Source: an uncultured bacterium (lineage in GTDB: Bacteria > SAR324 > NAC60-12). Taken from it: DNA of 22,508 nt. Position numbers: made by a program. Numbering within the stretch: position 1 is the first letter of the stretch; each line of letters starts with the position of its first letter. Shown piece after piece: positions 15,001 to 21,000 of the stretch. The stretch is from positions 1 to 22,508 of the forward strand of contig CAXGMD010000057.1 in assembly GCA_964010765.1 (NCBI GenBank), given 5' to 3'.

Positions 15001-18000
15001 CGTGAATCTGTTTGAAGCCAATCTTCAGAGGGCGAACCTTGTTGGCAGCAAATTAGCGGGTGCTAGACTTCTCTCAGCGAATCTAGTGGATGCAAAACTA
15101 CGAGAAGCTTCACTGATTCATGCTCAACTAGTCGGTGCAGATTTAGAAGGAGCCGACTTGGATCGGGCAGACCTGTTTGAGGCCAATCTGGAAATTGCTA
15201 ATCTACAGTGGGCCAACCTTGCTGGAGCCTCGTTAGAAAACGCTAATTTGGGTTTGGCTAATCTCTACAAGGCTAATCTTCAGGGAGCCGACCTGCGTGG
15301 TGCAAATCTAACTGGGGCAATGCTTGGTGAAGCAAACCTGAGCAACGCCAATTTGGAGGGTGCTCGCCTAATAGTAGTTAATCTAAGTCGTGCAAATCTA
15401 ACTGGTGCAAATCTCAAAGGCGTTAAGCTCCATGAAGCAATCCTCAGTGGAGCTGATCTGACCGATGTAGAAATGACTGATGCCCAGATCTGTGGAACAC
15501 GTATGCCAGCTGGGAATATGGTTCACAAGGATTGCTGACTAGAGAAGACGGCGACCGCTTTTGAAAGTATCAAAAACGATCGGGAGGAAGGGATAGAGCT
15601 GAGGTAGGTTGTGCAACTCTAGTGATGTTTCTTGTGCTTGTGGATTTCAATCAGTTTTTCAACCCCATGCTCATGGAATAGCGCTCCCCGAAAATCGACA
15701 TTGATGATGTAGTGATCGTTTGATGTGTGATGGGAGCGCACCACTAATGCATGAATAGGTGAGCAGGCGACTAACTCCTCTGTATTGGCCTCTGAGGGAA
15801 TGTAAAAAGTCATACTGATTTTCGCATGAGGACTGCAGTGGCTATTCGCAACCATCTTGCATCCTCCCATGCTGATATCAAGAACCTTCACGACTCCCTC
15901 ATTCTCGTTGTACAGGAGTGTTGCTGGTAGCACGACCGGATAGCGTTTGTGATGCCTTCGACAGTCGCCTCGGTAGTGCTTGCTATCAACAAATCTTACT
16001 TCATGGTTTTGCATCTTTTTTTCCTCGGACTATAGCTGTTTAATGGGGGCTTGTCGTACTGCTTAAATTTGCGATATTTTGGATTTTTCTTCAATTACTG
16101 CTGAAAATTGACTCACAACCTCACAATTGTTGGAGTTAAATTATTTTTTTTAACAATCTTGACATGATAGAAGATATTCTTGCCATTGAATCAATAACCG
16201 AGTCAAGTAAATTCGCTCTGTTTGAATTGCCACCAAGTTATTTTTGACCTGAATTTCAACGCAGTTCTTACTTCCGTAGAACAGAATTCACTACCGCAAA
16301 TACGGGGGCAAACAAAACGGTTAGCAATCTAGTTCAAGAGGTGGGATCATCGTGACAACCAGCTCGGAGTCGCGATAAATCTGAGGCAGGAACCAAGGTC
16401 TGATAAGCGAAGGCCTCCAACTGTTCAAGAATTTGCTTAGACACCCGCACGCAGTATTGGGGATTTTTTGTCTCGATAGAAACCATGTCCGAGTTAGAAC
16501 GCGTAATCCTCACATCGACTGTCTCCCCAAATTCCATTGAAACCTGATCAATCTCTACACTAGGTTGAGCGTCCTCATTGATGAATAAGGACTGCTCCTC
16601 CCACTGAATTTGTAGTGGATGCTGAATCTGTCGAGCTGTCTGTGCTGTAAATGCTAGAAAGCAGGGCAGACCCGTCATAGACTCAATGACAAGCGAGGAA
16701 ACTCCTAATCCTTCGGGCAATTGTGCAAAATCCATCAGTGCTAATCCACAGCGCAATGGACAAAGTGGGTGATTGTTACCTTTCCAACGCTGAGTAGCTA
16801 GTCTTGGGGCTTGTAGGTCATTCAACAGCATCAAGCTCAACATAAAATCTCCACCGGGCAACCCGAACTTGCTCAACCAAGCAGCAGCCCAGCCAATTTC
16901 CTCCGCATCACTCCAGCAATAACCAGCACCCCGAGCAGCCTTGACTAACAGCTGCTGGAGTTCAGACTGAGCAAACCAAAGGTCACTAGAAGTACAAAAA
17001 CCCTCTGAGACTTGCTGATTTTCAGGAAACATCTGCATGGTTCAATTCATTTGGGTAAGGTTCCCCTTGAAACAAGCTGATTCGGACCCAACGATCAGAA
17101 CGAGGATCAAAGCGAGTTGCTCCAAAAAAAGCTAGTTTGCTGCGTAAGAGATCGATGGGCAGCATCTCAGCAGAAATGAGATTGTCCTGAATTTCAGCAA
17201 AAGGATAATGCGCAGAGAGTTGAACCCGACGGACAATCGAACGAAAATCAGGACGCACCAACAATAGATGGGCCACTGGAATCCTGTCAGACCACTCTTT
17301 GAGCAAATCGCAGAGTTCAGCTACCTGGCGACCAATATCCAGAGGCTGTTCACGTTCAGCACCAGATTCACAGTGTCGTTCACCAAGGCGAGGTTCCAGT
17401 TTTTCTTCTGACACATACCAAAAGCGGGCGCATTGTTCTGGTTGCTGATAATCCGTCCCTAACGCCCAAGCAAAGTGACTATGCAAATGTTTTCTCAACT
17501 CACCAATTGATTGACGGCCATCGACCTTGAAAGTTACTTCTTCATCTATGGCCATCTGATCTCCTAAATCATCAACCAACTCCCCATGTGGCTCCAATAA
17601 CAGGGCCAGCATTGCTTCCTGTGCTTCTATCGGCAGTTTGCGTTCACCCCATTGCCAGAGTACGTCCCATGGGTAGATTTGCGCTGCGTCCCACTCTTCA
17701 TGAACAAATGTCTGCAGTTGCCTCAAGCCTTCTCGCAGTTCTTTCAACTTGGCTACCTGCAGTGGGTGTTCGCTCTGCCACTGCACCGCATTTTCCTGTG
17801 CTTCCCTGAGCGCTTCACAAAATTGATCAAGTATTTCTGAAGTTAACTTGGGCTGGGAGCGTACCCGAGCAAGCGCCTCTTCACGAGCTGCAAACCAATG
17901 ATGAATCAGCACCGGATGACGTACTAGGAAGGGAGCCATGCCCAAACCAGTCGAGTTGCCCACTCCCAACAACCTGCGTAATGTAGAATCAAGCCTCACT

Positions 18001-21000
18001 GCCTGCAATCCTCCTTGCTCTGCTGCCAGATGCTCGACAAGATCCACAGTGAACGCTCGGGTCAGCCAGACAGAGAGCATCTCAGCTTGAAAAGGAGCCC
18101 GCATCTCTGGTCGACCTGCCAAATTACCCCGATCGGCTGCGCCAAACTTACCTGTCCCATAGACCGCCGTGGTACGCATCAGGTAACCCGTCTGCTCCAG
18201 ACGACTACGCTCAGGCTGACGTCCTCGAGCTAACTCTTTCACCACATACTCAAAGAGTCGTACAGAACGATTAGCCCGACTCAGCGATAGCTCCTTCGCT
18301 GAAATGCGTCCTGCTTCTTGAAGAGGAACATTGCGTTCTAACCGCTTGATATCAGCAGTACTGGGAGTACCATCAAATAGAGTGAACGTGGCATCCCAAG
18401 CAGTTGCAATCACCCTATCTGAGCGCATCTCTGCTGGAAGATCATGAGCGAAGGCCACCAAGCTATAACAGCGTTCAGGGCCTTGCATTCGGTAAACGGC
18501 GTGACCAACCCCTTGCTGGTTGATCTGCCAGACTGGACGGTCAAAGTTCCAATTTTCTTTCTTTAGGCGTCGCAGTAATTGACGCAGAAAGGAGAGGCGT
18601 GTTGGGTGACTACAGCCCATGCGTGTAAGGCACATCACCTGGCTGGGAGAGCGATAAAACCTGGCTGGAACTGTTTGCTCGATTGGCTTCACGTGACGTC
18701 CTCCGTTCTTGTAGAGAAGCTCTCCGCAAAAAACCTTGCCCAGTTGTTCCCTAAAATGCCGAAGACTTCTTCTTCAGCAAAACCTACCTCCCGCAAGCCC
18801 TCTGCCAAGCTGCCAAAAGCGCGATTATCTGGATACCATTCTGGCATCGGTGGGAACCCGGGGATCTTGGCACTTCCTTCTCCGTAATCCAAGGATTTGG
18901 TCCAGCGTCCGTTGCGCATCCATTCCACAATCTCGTCCGGTTGATCCTGACAGAGATCCGAACCTATCCCTATCTGGCTCACTCCCATCAACTCAGCGGT
19001 CTTGGCCACCATCTCGCAGAAGGATCTTCTAGTACAGTTAGTCCCTTCTTTCAAATGATGTGGATAAAGTGAGAATCCAAGCATCCCACCGGATTCACCG
19101 AGAGAACGTAATACCTGATCGGACTTGTTACGCAGTGCTGGATGCCAAAAGGTTGGGTTAGCGTGCGTAATGGCGATTGGTCGGCTGGAAAGTTCAATCG
19201 CTTCCAGAGTTGAGCGCTCTGCTGAGTGACTCATGTCGATCACCAGACCCACTCGGTTCATTTCCTGAATCACTTCACGTCCCATCCGCGTCAAACCAGG
19301 ATCTTCCTGCTCATAGCAACCGGTCGCCAACAGTGACTGGTTATTATAACTGAGCTGCATGAAGCGCAGACCTAAGCGATGAAGAATCTCCACTAGACCG
19401 ATGTCGTCTTCCATGCAACTGGGATTCTGTGATCCAAAGAAGATCGCTGTTCGATTAGTCTGTTGGGCTTTCTCCAAGTCACTGGTGTCAAATCCCTGGA
19501 AAATCAAATCTGGGTAGCGCTCAAACCATCGATTCCACGCTTCCATCACCAGCACGGTTTCCCGAAAATTTTCGTGGTAGGTGATCGTCACGTGGACACC
19601 GTCCACCCTGCCTTCGCGGAGTTGATGAAAGATCTTCTCGGACCAGTTGGCGTACTGCAGGGCATCAATGCGAAAGTTCATGCATATCTCTTATCAGCTG
19701 CTATCAGAGTGTCTTGTGAACAAAGCGCAGGTGTAACAGGAATTTTTATCAAATGCCACCCCTTCTCCCAATATGTACAGATTCGTTTCAATAGTTTATT
19801 GATTGGAATCCATTGACGGTTGTGCACTCCTCAGTCATCATCATGAAAAATAAACCAAACTGATTTGAAAGACTCGCAAGATTCAAAGAGAAGTAGGTGC
19901 GCCAATGGTTGTCACCAAAAGTTGGCAATACAGAATTCGCCCAATGATCCTAAGTTGCTTTTGCATCATCAGTGTCAGTCTGGGAGCTTGCCAGAGTAGT
20001 TTCCTTCAACAACCCCTGGCTCTGGATCAAGACGATCTCGTGAAGCTGATGGAGAACAAAGACTGCCCAGGCTGCAACTTGGTTGGCGCCGATCTTAGTG
20101 GAATGAGTCTCGAAGGCAGTGACCTGAGTTTTTCCAATCTTCAAGGGGCTAGATTGCGTGGAACCGACCTCCGACGAGCACGACTGCGTGGAGCCAAGTT
20201 GACCGAGGCAGATTTCAGTGGGGCAGACCTATTGGACGCCAACCTAGAAGAAACAGATTTGGAGGGTGCCCAGCTGACCGGAGCCAATCTGCGTGGTGTA
20301 GAACTTTGGAACTCAAACCTGAAAAGCGCCAAGCTTCGAGGTACTTCTCTGGAGGAAGCAAGCTTGCGGGATGCTCGCATGGAAGGAGCCGATCTCAGCG
20401 GAGCCGTCTTGTTTGAAGCAAATTTGGAGGAAGCAAATTTGACCGGAGTGAACCTCAACGCAGCGGACCTGCGAGGAGTTAAAATGCGGCGTACCAACTT
20501 GACCAACGTCAAGATGGAAGGAACCGATCTGAACTACGCAAAGCTTTGCGGAACGATTTTACCAAATGGTGAGATAACGGTTCGGGATTGCTGAAAAGAA
20601 AATCGGATGAGATTGGGGGAAATCTTTTTGAAGACTCCCCCCGGGGCTAACACCAAAATCTCTCTTGCCTAGAGAAATCAGCGAGTTGGGCAACTATGGA
20701 AGGTCCATGCAATTAGCGTAGTACGTCGTCGTTGCGGGCCAATCACTGAAGACTCCGATCACTCCGACCTGCTGCGCGAGCACGTCTAACACCGTCATCA
20801 CATCCCCATCATTGTTGATCGCTTCCTTCACCGTTTGATAGTACCAACCACCACCTCCATTCAACGGTCCGGAACGCTCCAGTGTCCAGGTGATCAAATC
20901 AATTCCTGCCTGCCGGGCCTGACGTGCATACGCTGAGGGCACAATTTCTTCACCGTCAAAATCAAGCAAAGCGTAAATTGGTGGGGCCAGAATACGTACT

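Follow-up and report, generated by a model that had tools for sequence, protein, structure and literature searches.

The analysed stretch (hereinafter the window) is a 22,508-nucleotide contig of an uncultured SAR324 bacterium and carries three overlapping genes on its reverse strand:

18689..19681, minus strand: homC-like gene encoding an M19-family TIM-barrel amidohydrolase of 330 aa (Pfam PF01244)
17022..18692, minus strand: homB-like gene with a GTG start, encoding a protein of 556 aa, assigned by its gene-order match to homB
16334..17038, minus strand: homA-like gene encoding a DUF3726 protein of 234 aa (Pfam PF12525)

The ORF coordinates give an overlap of 4 nt between the stop of the homC-like gene and the start of the homB-like gene, and one of 17 nt between the homB-like and homA-like genes, in agreement with the tight operon claimed in a preliminary description of this DNA. 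Pfam recognizes Peptidase_M19 in the 330-aa protein (1.1e-67, 229 bits against a cut-off of 26) and DUF3726 in the 234-aa protein (1.1e-09, 38.5 bits against 22.1), and detects no LysR among the eight ORFs scanned from 13494 to 21956; an NCBIfam search at E<=0.1 returned no family for any of the three proteins. Metatranscriptome contigs from four libraries of four studies cover the three genes at 95-100% identity and span both junctions, but as the flanks are covered to an equal degree and DNA carry-over is possible, they lend weak support to the trio reading.

The 556-aa protein matches no Pfam family at E<=0.01. A phmmer search against PDB sequences gave a single chance match (E 0.64), and a 27-sequence profile of its family recovered coiled-coil noise alone (E>3). 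All 8000 scored candidates for the protein reach E<=1e-5, and phmmer against 1.84 billion representatives retrieves 1416 sequences with E<=0.001, of which 419 reach E<=1e-30; among the candidates scored, its closest relatives outside SAR324 are 'hypothetical proteins' of Rhodobacteraceae with 63-70% identity. In an AlphaFold2 model (pLDDT 95.5, pTM 0.94) the N- and C-terminal strands form a mixed beta-sheet core, with a helical insert at about residues 185-420. Foldseek retrieved no PDB match to this model at E<=0.001, and VIA-align none at Z>=5 among 48,161 chains (top Z 4.8). The preliminary picture of a large, conserved family with a confident model and neither Pfam, NCBIfam nor PDB relatives thus holds. 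Conserved columns are chiefly Arg, Asp, Glu and Asn along with the Gly-rich loops G-N-G-K-F-G and L-G-x-G-N-S-T-G-L-G, H259 being the sole near-invariant His. The suggested pairing with DUF3726 was also upheld: all ten long forms scanned (760-816 aa) are fusions to DUF3726, nine of them exceeding the Pfam cut-off, and in these architectures, which are common among the relatives, DUF3726 is C-terminal.

The model of the DUF3726 protein (pLDDT 89.2) superposes on type-2 malate/lactate dehydrogenases (Ldh_2, PF02615), such as the delta1-piperideine-2-carboxylate/N-methyl-amino-acid dehydrogenase DpkA (1wtj), ureidoglycolate dehydrogenase (1xrh) and YiaK (1s20). All eight VIA-align matches with Z>=5 belong to this family (Z 10.9-12.6 over 181-193 residues), the next match having a Z of 4.3, and among the matches listed by Foldseek every one to rank 26 is an Ldh_2 protein. 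Moreover, hhalign links the DUF3726 protein to Ldh_2 by way of the long forms of the 556-aa family: in distant ones, the extension at the C-terminus aligns to the Ldh_2 profile over its whole length (probability 93%, 247 columns). As modeled, the fold is that of a reduced or trimmed DpkA-like Ldh_2 protein. It is about 110 residues shorter than Ldh_2 proteins, falls below the Pfam Ldh_2 threshold, and lacks the conserved Ldh_2 His (S-H-G) and the G-T-N-P motif seen in the operon's own Ldh_2 proteins; it is probably catalytically degenerate. An alignment of the family (A3) reveals a conserved C-terminal motif, P-A-[ST]-x-x-S-R, and two Gly-rich stretches, K-A-A-R-G-A-G and G-A-G-A-G, the latter, C-terminal one being replaced by R-A-G-C-H in the window's protein.

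The top PDB sequence match of the M19 protein is 2i5g, an 'amidohydrolase' (6.2e-54), and the protein belongs to the M19 subgroup nearest to this solved structure; renal dipeptidases match at only about 1e-19 to 1e-21, the alignment beginning past residue 37. The M19 family includes enzymes with dehydropeptidase activity, and its canonical members, renal dipeptidase and Sco3058, are binuclear zinc dipeptidases and dehydropeptidases. The window's protein shares their Pfam family and TIM-barrel amidohydrolase fold but carries I-D-A-L-Q-Y, with L-Q-Y in place of the H-x-D that forms the N-terminal metal motif of canonical M19 enzymes. In an alignment of 11 operon-type and one dgc-type M19 proteins (A5), Glu124, His152, His173 and Asp242 are conserved, and we take these to be the equivalents of the canonical metal ligands. 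The protein probably acts on something other than a dipeptide.

We then clustered the ORFs of the 80 best genome loci with a relative of the 556-aa protein (X in the gene orders below). This family was found in 76 of the 80, M19 in 63, ALDH in 62, DUF3726 in 50, LysR in 41, BCCT in 30, Ldh_2 in 23 and RidA in 14; in 60 of the 76 loci with X the M19 gene ends at most 2.5 kb upstream of it. The usual order is a LysR gene on the opposite strand followed by ALDH-M19-(BCCT)-X-DUF3726-(Ldh_2 or RidA)-(BCCT). The ALDH and BCCT neighbors noted earlier for roseobacters were seen again, Vibrio campbellii has LysR followed by ALDH-M19-BCCT-X-DUF3726, and the Ldh_2 protein encoded within the operon closely resembles DpkA (1wtj, 2.5e-78).

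This arrangement matches gene for gene the homABCDER operon for the breakdown of homarine (N-methylpicolinate), a common marine metabolite, published in March 2026 (Ferrer-Gonzalez et al., Nat Microbiol 2026, PMC13236597); hence, the family can no longer be called undescribed, as it was in the preliminary description. That paper gives the Cobetia order as homE-A-B-T-C-D-R, with HomC a 'peptidase', HomD 'aldehyde dehydrogenase-like', HomT a glycine-betaine-type transporter and HomR a regulator. The gene types and their order (small specific, large specific, transporter where present, peptidase, ALDH, regulator) are the same, with homA adjoining homB. In Ruegeria pomeroyi the paper equates homA-R with SPO3188-3192, in an operon region SPO3186-3192; independent papers describe SPO3186 as a BCCT/OpuD transporter, SPO3187 as the Ldh_2-family 'ComC' and SPO3188 as hypothetical, and this region agrees with Ruegeria/Shimia-type loci (L054, L087, L088) at seven of seven positions. 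By the paper's account homE has no orthologue in R. pomeroyi, yet SPO3187 belongs to the Ldh_2 family; homE and the Ldh_2 gene may thus be different genes. The paper's HMMs for homA and homB are specific while those for homC and homD yield false positives, and E-values go down to 1e-240 for homB and only to 1e-57 for homA; this is the expected behavior and supports equating X with HomB and DUF3726 with HomA. In roseobacters the operon lies beside mgd genes, and the 'sarcosine oxidase' and folD/purU neighbors of our module in Phaeobacter, TM1040 and XES5 fit the paper's reassignment: the former, taken at face value earlier, are probably N-methylglutamate dehydrogenase (mgd), which further supports the hom identity. 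A hom-positive Vibrio isolate is likewise reported. As judged from synteny and the paper's descriptions, and with R. pomeroyi not among the best 120 matches to a Ruegeria lacuscaerulensis homologue used as query, the 556-aa protein is in all likelihood HomB, the DUF3726 protein HomA and the M19 protein HomC.

The Cobetia and R. pomeroyi genetics, the products and the AlphaFold heterodimer come from that paper, and the gene anatomy, family, gene order, fusions and HomA fold from the present analysis. HomA and HomB are reported as the two proteins specific to the operon, predicted to form a heterodimer (ipTM+pTM 0.92-0.95), and homB mutants fail to grow on homarine. Taken together with the 17-nt overlap and the ten fusions, this heterodimer suggests that HomB and HomA are subunits of one enzyme, in which HomA would partner HomB rather than form a homodimer as Ldh_2 proteins do. 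We therefore consider it very probable that the trio is the homC-homB-homA core of homarine breakdown, with HomAB a two-subunit ring-opening enzyme and HomC an amide hydrolase. In this scheme, HomAB would attack and open the N-methylpyridinium ring and HomC would then hydrolyse the amide of the ring-opened product; in complete operons HomD, an aldehyde dehydrogenase, would oxidize the aldehyde end. The N-methyl imine/enamine would be handled by RidA or by an imine reductase resembling DpkA to give N-methylglutamate, and Mgd would convert the latter to glutamate. DpkA substrates and homarine have an N=C(COO-) substructure in common. The intermediates reported include C7H9NO5 (PMC13236597). We infer that this ring-opened compound may be N-formyl-N-methyl-dehydroglutamate, with HomC, by analogy with M19 dehydropeptidase activity, as its deformylase; C6H9NO4 would be the N-methyl enamine/imine, reduced by Ldh_2 or hydrolysed by RidA.

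TgnAB and TgnC-F constitute the trigonelline pathway of Acinetobacter baylyi. In both this and the hom pathway an N-methylpyridinium carboxylate ring is opened before demethylation, and an ALDH and a hydrolase act later on. The hom pathway ends in N-methylglutamate, the Tgn pathway in succinate and methylamine. The C7H9NO5 and other hom intermediates are isomeric with those of the trigonelline pathway. Citing TgnAB as an analogy and ascribing FAD-binding motifs to HomA, Ferrer-Gonzalez et al. (PMC13236597) propose that HomAB is a two-component flavin-dependent oxygenase, with HomA reducing the flavin and HomB activating O2. The K-A-A-R-G-A-G and G-A-G-A-G stretches can indeed be read as dinucleotide motifs; however, the second is the one replaced in the window's HomA, the HomA model has the Ldh_2 rather than a flavin reductase fold, and neither protein has a flavin-related, reductase or monooxygenase domain detectable by Pfam. 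VIA-align matched no flavin monooxygenase to the HomB model at Z>=5, a result that decides little for a model of 556 aa. As far as tested, the folds seem to differ from those of TgnAB. Hence, we regard a flavin-dependent mechanism as unlikely. None of the families that recur in the 80 best loci is a flavoprotein or an oxygenase; thus, the ring opening must lie in HomAB itself.

The 556-aa protein is present in 28 of the 64 genomes of the window's SAR324 order and in seven of eight other genomes of its genus, contrary to the rarity ('13 of 87') suggested earlier, whereas the alphaproteobacterial affinity proposed for the SAR324 copy is upheld by the tree. This spread, the HomA fold, the fusions and the absence of H-x-D from HomC are new here, as is a SAR324 genome with the homCBA core alone; SAR324 is not mentioned in the main text of PMC13236597. 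In the host genome, which is 92% complete, we found neither a BCCT nor a HomD-type ALDH (best 35% identity), and a SoxD/MgdB-type subunit was absent from it and from a 99%-complete congener in a search that was positive in three controls. With the queries used, homD, homR, homT, homE and mgd were found neither near the trio nor elsewhere in the genome, so that the flanking steps must be carried out by unlinked enzymes or differently.

These absences speak for a rival reading in which the SAR324 trio is a paralogue of the hom core with another substrate, for example a different N-alkylated heterocycle or betaine, or a compound related to ectoine. The M19-X-DUF3726 set would then be a general cassette to open and hydrolyse an N-heterocycle, with homarine one substrate among several. 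In the SAR324 genus g2 the trio follows ectoine-degradation-like genes, namely those for an ABC transporter, a PLP enzyme, an M24 creatinase/prolidase-like protein, an AstE/AspA-like deacylase and a PhyH dioxygenase. One Phaeobacter plasmid carries two paralogous ALDH-M19-X-DUF3726 operons, and distant rhizobial modules (about 29% identity) come with polyamine- or peptide-type ABC transporters, an aminotransferase, SSADH and RidA; family membership thus does not fix the substrate. In the tree, the window also falls outside the Ruegeria clade expected to hold SPO3189. Nevertheless, the window's clade (38 tree rows) shares the ALDH-M19-(BCCT)-X-DUF3726 architecture of the Ruegeria clade, including LysR; the window's protein is 54-57% identical to plasmid copies from Phaeobacter, TM1040 and Sulfitobacter that adjoin BCCT and mgd-like genes; and the hom operons reported as functional in Alpha- and Gammaproteobacteria (PMC13236597) probably bracket its clade. 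A different substrate therefore appears improbable.

The M19 protein of the dimethylglycine (dgc) operon of Pseudomonas (PA5396-PA5397) resembles HomC in lacking the N-terminal H-x-D (I-D-G-L-I-I), is 33% identical to the window's HomC (A5), and likewise occurs with a small partner of no known function in a methylated-amine catabolic operon. Such a pairing within this M19 subgroup, together with the loss of H-x-D in HomC and of the Ldh_2 His and G-T-N-P motif in HomA, might indicate that HomB/HomA is a non-catalytic activating, metal-loading or substrate-delivering complex and the M19 hydrolase the trio's only enzyme, but we give this hardly any credence given the very strong conservation of HomB, in which numerous Arg, Asp, Glu and Asn positions are near-invariant, the growth defect of the homB mutants, the chemical consideration that amide hydrolysis alone cannot open a pyridinium ring, and a Mesorhizobium locus with the X-DUF3726 pair and ALDH and no M19 among the annotated genes of an incomplete PLSDB gene table. 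The M19-DUF3726 association is not that of the dgc operon: as seen in a single Pseudomonas genome, M19 is paired there with DUF5943 (176 aa) and not with HomB or DUF3726, and the only DUF3726 gene of that genome lies inside a hom-like operon.

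The three genes under study follow one another head to tail, all on the window's minus strand:

18689-19681, minus strand: homC-like gene, Peptidase_M19 family, 330 aa (Pfam PF01244, 1.1e-67)
17022-18692, minus strand: homB-like gene, 556 aa, GTG start, without a Pfam family
16334-17038, minus strand: homA-like gene, DUF3726, 234 aa (Pfam 1.1e-09, residues 25-63)

The M19 and homB-like ORFs overlap by 4 nt, and the homB-like and DUF3726 ORFs by 17 nt. No NCBIfam model matches any of the three proteins at E<=0.1, no Pfam family is assigned to the 556-aa protein at E<=0.01, and searches of the PDB sequences with it, as a single sequence or as a 27-sequence profile, return only rows at the level of chance. 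The ORFs and these searches thus bear out the preliminary description of an overlapping three-gene operon whose middle protein belongs to no catalogued family. Pfam assigns the flanking genes to PilZ (one protein), pentapeptide repeats (two) and GDPD phosphodiesterases (one), which gives no hint of a pathway for the trio. Metatranscriptome contigs from four libraries of four studies span the whole of the trio at identities of 95-100% and run across both gene junctions; since the flanks are covered as much as the trio, and DNA carry-over is possible, these contigs neither demonstrate transcription specific to the operon nor allow expression to be ranked.

The main text of Ferrer-Gonzalez et al. 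(Nat Microbiol 2026; PMC13236597) describes an operon, homABCDER, for the catabolism of homarine (N-methylpicolinate), with the order homE-homA-homB-homT-homC-homD-homR in Cobetia sp. OBi1 and with the R. pomeroyi genes from homA to homR corresponding to SPO3188-SPO3192. There HomC is a predicted peptidase and HomD is aldehyde-dehydrogenase-like, homT encodes a transporter of glycine-betaine type and homR a regulator; the function of HomA and HomB is described as unclear, the two are modelled as a heterodimer (ipTM+pTM 0.92-0.95), and their genes are adjacent in 97.7% of genomes. Reversed, the Cobetia order is the consensus of the loci related to ours: a regulator, then ALDH, M19, transporter, the 556-aa protein, DUF3726 and an extra gene. 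In other papers SPO3186 is a BCCT/OpuD transporter, SPO3187 a 'ComC' of the type-2 malate/lactate dehydrogenase (Ldh_2) family and SPO3188 a hypothetical protein, and across SPO3186-3192 all seven gene positions agree with the Ruegeria/Shimia-type loci. The behaviour of the published HMMs fits the same mapping, those for homA and homB being specific (E-values down to 1e-240 for homB and only to 1e-57 for homA) and those for homC and homD yielding many false positives (PMC13236597). We conclude that the 556-aa protein is HomB, the DUF3726 protein HomA and the M19 protein HomC, a match to the genetically tested genes (SPO3188-3191 of R. pomeroyi and ACFLL8_11495-11515 of Cobetia) made by synteny and description and not by alignment; no R. 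pomeroyi protein is found among the best 120 Ruegeria-type relatives of the Ruegeria lacuscaerulensis homologue.

Two traits of the hom operon are present in the window, namely the adjacency of homA and homB on one strand, with their 17-nt overlap, and a homC peptidase gene nearby, overlapping homB by 4 nt. No ALDH (homD) gene was detected by Pfam among the eight ORFs scanned at 13494-21956 or recognised by eye in the window's 42 ORF translations, and no homR-type regulator, of LysR type in the related loci, adjoins the trio, whose neighbours encode the PilZ, pentapeptide-repeat and GDPD proteins. The finding of the trio is real, and the locus in the window is a new, truncated member of the hom group in SAR324. 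According to the main text of the homarine study, growth on homarine is lost in homB, homC, homD and homR mutants, the products are N-methylglutamate and then glutamate, 'sarcosine-oxidase-like' genes are reassigned to N-methylglutamate dehydrogenase (mgd), and one hom-positive Vibrio grows without mgd (PMC13236597). What had been presented as a widespread undescribed family is thereby named, with genetics to support its role, and its novelty is much below that first seen in it. The interest that is left concerns the chemistry of HomAB, the orphan fold of HomB, the Ldh_2 ancestry of HomA and what the trio does in SAR324.

We compared the gene order in the best 80 of 599 confirmed genomic loci, using crude ORF calls that were clustered and annotated through the cluster representatives. 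The counts are lower bounds, as many loci end at contig edges and antisense frames were sometimes taken in GC-rich genomes; three antisense 'shadow' clusters were reassigned by position. So counted, HomB is found in at least 76 loci, M19 in 63, ALDH in 62, DUF3726 in 50, LysR in 41, BCCT in 30, Ldh_2 in 23 and RidA in 14, with Ldh_2 and RidA occurring together in a single locus. In 60 of the 76 loci with HomB, M19 is placed upstream of it at a distance of no more than 2.5 kb. No flavoprotein or oxygenase family recurs in the 80 loci. The Ldh_2 neighbour in the operons is close to the delta1-piperideine-2-carboxylate / N-methyl-amino-acid dehydrogenase DpkA (1wtj, 2.5e-78), and the operon ALDH is nearest to betaine-aldehyde and (hydroxy/amino)muconate-semialdehyde dehydrogenases.

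A LysR gene and the block ALDH-M19-BCCT-HomB-DUF3726 are shared by the roseobacter plasmids (Phaeobacter inhibens, Ruegeria sp. TM1040), where 'sarcosine oxidase' genes lie beside them, by Vibrio campbellii and by strain XES5, in which an Ldh-family oxidoreductase, a betaine ABC transporter, purU and folD follow. The plasmid pPGA1_262 of Phaeobacter inhibens DSM 17395 carries two paralogous LysR-ALDH-M19-HomB-DUF3726 operons (one at NC_018291.1 196111-200901, locus L089, the other being locus L001), of which one includes BCCT and lies beside mgd/sox-like genes and the other lies beside dmdA/B/C/D, the genes for DMSP demethylation. Literature searches for the PGA1_262p locus tags of Phaeobacter, for a membrane dipeptidase with BCCT and ALDH in that genus, and for DUF3726 by name found no paper.

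More distant versions of HomB, about 29% identical, are encoded on rhizobial megaplasmids. S. meliloti pSymB has the order IclR-X-Y-M19 (X being the HomB relative), and after it come genes for an ABC transporter, an aminotransferase and a succinate-semialdehyde dehydrogenase as well as two for RidA; in Neorhizobium an ABC transporter comes after X and Y, and in Mesorhizobium X-Y lies within a peptide-type ABC operon that has an ALDH and no annotated M19. The second gene of the S. meliloti set aligns with HomA over 192 columns in hhalign at E 0.037 and a probability of 1.4%, shares with it a C-terminal P-x-S-x-x-S-R-x-x-A-G motif and scores 0.11 against Pfam Ldh_2, which is only suggestive of a relationship to HomA. 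These distant rhizobial trios point to a broader enzyme superfamily for the catabolism of N-heterocycles.

The HomB family is large: all 8000 scored candidates reach E<=1e-5, and among 1.84 billion cluster representatives 1416 are recovered at E<=0.001 and 419 at E<=1e-30. The nearest relatives outside SAR324 are 'hypothetical proteins' of Rhodobacteraceae at 63-70% identity, and the ESM Atlas offered only unnamed clusters, with no usable named match. The HomB model has a pLDDT of 95.5 and a pTM of 0.94; Foldseek gives no match at E<=0.001, and VIA-align of the whole model places none of 48,161 chains at Z>=5, a result compatible with a known domain hidden within the 556 residues. The earlier claim of a confident model without a structural neighbour accordingly holds for the whole model. 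The GNAT-like rows (Z about 4), urate oxidase 2iba (Z 4.7, residues 42-181) and the helical domain of enzyme I (Z 4.8) are weak, tied rows that we did not take as kin. The conserved residues of HomB are mostly Arg, Asp, Glu, Asn and Gly-rich loops, with one near-invariant His, so that a classical 2-His-1-carboxylate iron site is not evident.

The fold of HomA can be placed. In VIA-align its model (pLDDT 89.2) has eight matches at Z>=5, all of them Ldh_2 proteins (3uoe, Z 12.6; 2g8y, 12.5; 1z2i, 12.3; 1x0a, 12.2; 1xrh, 12.0; 1v9n, 11.8; DpkA 1wtj, 11.1; 1s20, 10.9), with 181-193 residues aligned at an rmsd of 3.4-3.9 and the next match at Z 4.3. All the Foldseek rows listed, down to rank 26, are likewise Ldh_2, a single one reaching E<=0.001. 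Pfam Ldh_2 (PF02615) does not match the HomA of the window, and a direct profile-profile comparison of the HomA and Ldh_2 alignments is weak (probability 7%, E 0.0048). The C-terminal extensions of 19 distant long forms of HomB (821-959 aa) match both the Ldh_2 profile (probability 93%, E 2.9e-7, 247 columns) and the HomA profile (probability 96%, E 5.9e-9); the link between the HomA and Ldh_2 profiles is visible only through these intermediates. The core profile of HomB itself has no Ldh_2 match, which is confined to the C-terminal extension of the long forms.

HomA is shorter than the Ldh_2 enzymes and has neither their conserved S-H-G histidine nor their G-T-N-P motif. Its invariant and near-invariant columns, across 50 sequences, contain no His, and the S-H-G and G-T-N-P positions of Ldh_2 (the former in the consensus and the latter invariant in the alignment of the operons' own Ldh_2 proteins) are unmatched in the hhalign pairing. 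HomA is hence probably not a dehydrogenase by the usual mechanism, and its model is that of a trimmed Ldh_2-fold protein rather than of an evident flavin protein. In the main text of the homarine study HomA is said to have FAD-binding motifs, and the terms lactate/malate dehydrogenase, NAD(P)H and formyl do not occur there (PMC13236597). The reported FAD signal was not reproduced with Pfam, which detects no flavin reductase or flavin-dependent oxygenase domain in either HomA or HomB. As regards the proposed TgnAB analogy, the HomA model is Ldh_2-like, and the whole HomB model matches nothing at Z>=5 in a search that may miss a domain hidden in its 556 residues. The Ldh_2 fold of HomA thereby offers a testable alternative to the published flavin hypothesis.

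Fusions of the two proteins are common among the 29 long representatives scanned. In each of the 10 long forms of 760-816 aa the HomB part is followed by DUF3726, nine times above the cut-off; the 19 longer ones include two with weak DUF3726 matches, three with weak Ldh_2 matches and 14 with neither. Together with the 17-nt gene overlap, these fusions support a HomB-HomA complex. The longer forms (P0205-P0270, 821-959 aa) are 30-36% identical to HomB and bear a C-terminal extension of 283-378 aa, which aligns with 247 columns of the Ldh_2 profile and, in the HomA profile, with columns 1 to ~140. The state ancestral to the HomB-HomA pair may survive in these forms.

HomC is an atypical member of the M19 family, which it matches at 229 bits (PF01244, cut-off 26). 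Its best solved relative is the 'amidohydrolase' 2i5g (6.2e-54); renal dipeptidases follow at about 1e-19 to 1e-21, in alignments that begin past residue 37. Canonical M19 enzymes carry an N-terminal metal-binding H-x-D, part of the binuclear-metal ligand set. All 11 operon-type M19 proteins have I-D-[GAN]-[LM]-Q-Y at the N-terminus, the Pfam match of HomC starts from profile position 30, and we take this I-D-A-L-Q-Y-type stretch to be the site of the canonical H-x-D. Set against that motif, HomC does not appear to hold the full binuclear-metal ligand set. The dgc-type M19 of Pseudomonas likewise has I-D-G-L-I-I in place of H-x-D. That enzyme lies in a dgc operon for dimethylglycine catabolism (L099, G001:C47, 7413-13190) with the order M19 - DUF5943 (176 aa) - DgcA - DgcB. 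An identity of the DUF3726 and M19 genes with the PA5396/PA5397 pair was rejected, the partner of M19 in the one Pseudomonas genome inspected being DUF5943 and the only DUF3726 gene of that genome lying in its hom-like operon. A transposon mutant of PA5396 has a dgc-like phenotype (PMC13492115).

As for the pathway, the main text of the homarine study reports, next to N-methylglutamate and N-methylglutamine, the labelled intermediates C7H9NO5, C6H9NO4 and C6H9NO3, and has the ring opening before demethylation (PMC13236597). As C3-C5, C2 with the carboxylate it bears and the methyl group on N all persist in N-methylglutamate, the ring carbon that must be lost is C6. C7H9NO5 fits the formula of N-formyl-N-methyl-dehydroglutamate, which could form if the C5-C6 bond were cleaved, with C6 remaining as a formamide and C5 passing from aldehyde to carboxylate by way of HomD. 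HomC might then strip the formyl group, by analogy an N-acyl-dehydroamino-acid hydrolysis; the M19 family has a known dehydropeptidase activity. The deformylated product, C6H9NO4, would be the N-methyl enamine/imine of 2-oxoglutarate, which the DpkA-like Ldh_2 could reduce to N-methylglutamate or RidA could hydrolyse, and this choice of routes would explain why Ldh_2 (23 of 80 loci) and RidA (14) replace each other in the operons, a single locus having both.

Ring opening must in turn reside in HomAB, since no other candidate recurs in the loci; it may use a flavin (the published TgnAB analogy), NAD(P)H (suggested by the ancestry of HomA) or no cofactor. We tentatively advance a single joint reading that we regard as doubtful when taken as a whole: HomB-HomA would be a new kind of pyridinium ring-opening enzyme needing no flavoprotein. 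HomA, descended from a DpkA-like imine reductase and since degenerate, would retain the pocket for 2-carboxy-N-heterocycles and perhaps an NAD(P)H site; HomB would carry out a hydride-assisted dearomatisation and an O2-dependent, cofactor-independent C5-C6 cleavage to the N-formyl-N-methyl product; and the atypical, possibly mononuclear HomC would deformylate it. M19-HomB-HomA would then be a portable cassette, which different lineages (SAR324, rhizobia) would have coupled with transporters and downstream enzymes of other kinds in order to use further N-heterocycles.

Few small nitrogen metabolites of marine plankton are as abundant as homarine, whose breakdown operon was identified only in 2026; SAR324 is a major dark-ocean lineage. 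The main text of the homarine study does not mention SAR324 (PMC13236597). HomB occurs in 28 of the 64 genomes of the window's order, more than the rarity in SAR324 ('13 of 87') given in the preliminary description. It is present in 27 of the 44 other genomes of the window's family, including 7 of the 8 other genomes of the genus, and in none of the 19 of the sister family. In a FastTree phylogeny of 80 sequences, the window's HomB and that of a 90%-identical SAR324 MAG fall inside an alphaproteobacterial clade with Roseovarius, Roseinatronobacter and a Rhizobiaceae MAG (SH-like support 97-99), apart from the Ruegeria/Phaeobacter clade; this tree is unrooted, has no AU test and leaves aside the 48-51%-identical copies of another SAR324 genus. 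The placement is consistent with acquisition of HomB by SAR324 from Alphaproteobacteria.

The usual partners are missing from the genome of the window (92% complete): neither a HomD-type ALDH, the best ALDH being 35% identical to an operon-type ALDH and on another contig, nor a BCCT transporter was found, and two Ldh_2 genes lie elsewhere. A SoxD/MgdB subunit, of a family that the same search recovered in three positive control genomes or records, was found neither there nor in a congener (99% complete). In another SAR324 genus the M19-HomB-DUF3726 trio (L113, G039:C4, 163-11647) lies directly downstream, on the same strand, of a set of uptake and enzyme genes: an ABC transporter (SBP_bac_8 and two permeases), a PALP (PLP) enzyme, an M24 creatinase/prolidase-like protein, an AstE/AspA-type deacylase and a PhyH dioxygenase. 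To us this set resembles the genes of ectoine/hydroxyectoine degradation. The missing partners and this context indicate that the conserved unit in SAR324 is the trio alone. Homarine is accordingly uncertain as its substrate there; that the SAR324 trio is a paralogue acting on another substrate would suit these contexts, and we consider it unlikely. The question raised is of what use hom core genes are in SAR324, where they are frequent and stripped of the ALDH, regulator, BCCT and Mgd partners.

Further features of the window are as follows:

3-455, minus strand: pentapeptide-repeat protein
9542-10021, minus strand: pentapeptide-repeat protein
14681-15538, plus strand: pentapeptide-repeat protein
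19905-20594, plus strand: pentapeptide-repeat protein
13494-14222, minus strand: fatty-acid-desaturase/alkane-hydroxylase-like ORF, 242 aa (PF00487, 8.8e-26), beginning within the family profile
14247-14585, minus strand: membrane ORF, 112 aa, preceding the desaturase-like ORF on the same strand
5507-6496, minus strand: 2OG-Fe(II)-oxygenase-like ORF, judged from its translation
1972-5576, minus strand: polar-amino-acid-type ABC transporter (ATPase, two permeases, binding protein), judged from translations

The 22.5 kb of the window thus encode four or more pentapeptide-repeat proteins, two of them flanking the trio and several having N-termini that resemble signal peptides; the two that were scanned match Pfam Pentapeptide at 9e-57 and 6e-47. 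The desaturase-like and membrane ORFs look like one gene broken by a stop or frameshift, or a mis-assembly. The 2OG-Fe(II)-oxygenase-like ORF and the ABC transporter could be another unit for the uptake and oxidation of a small molecule.
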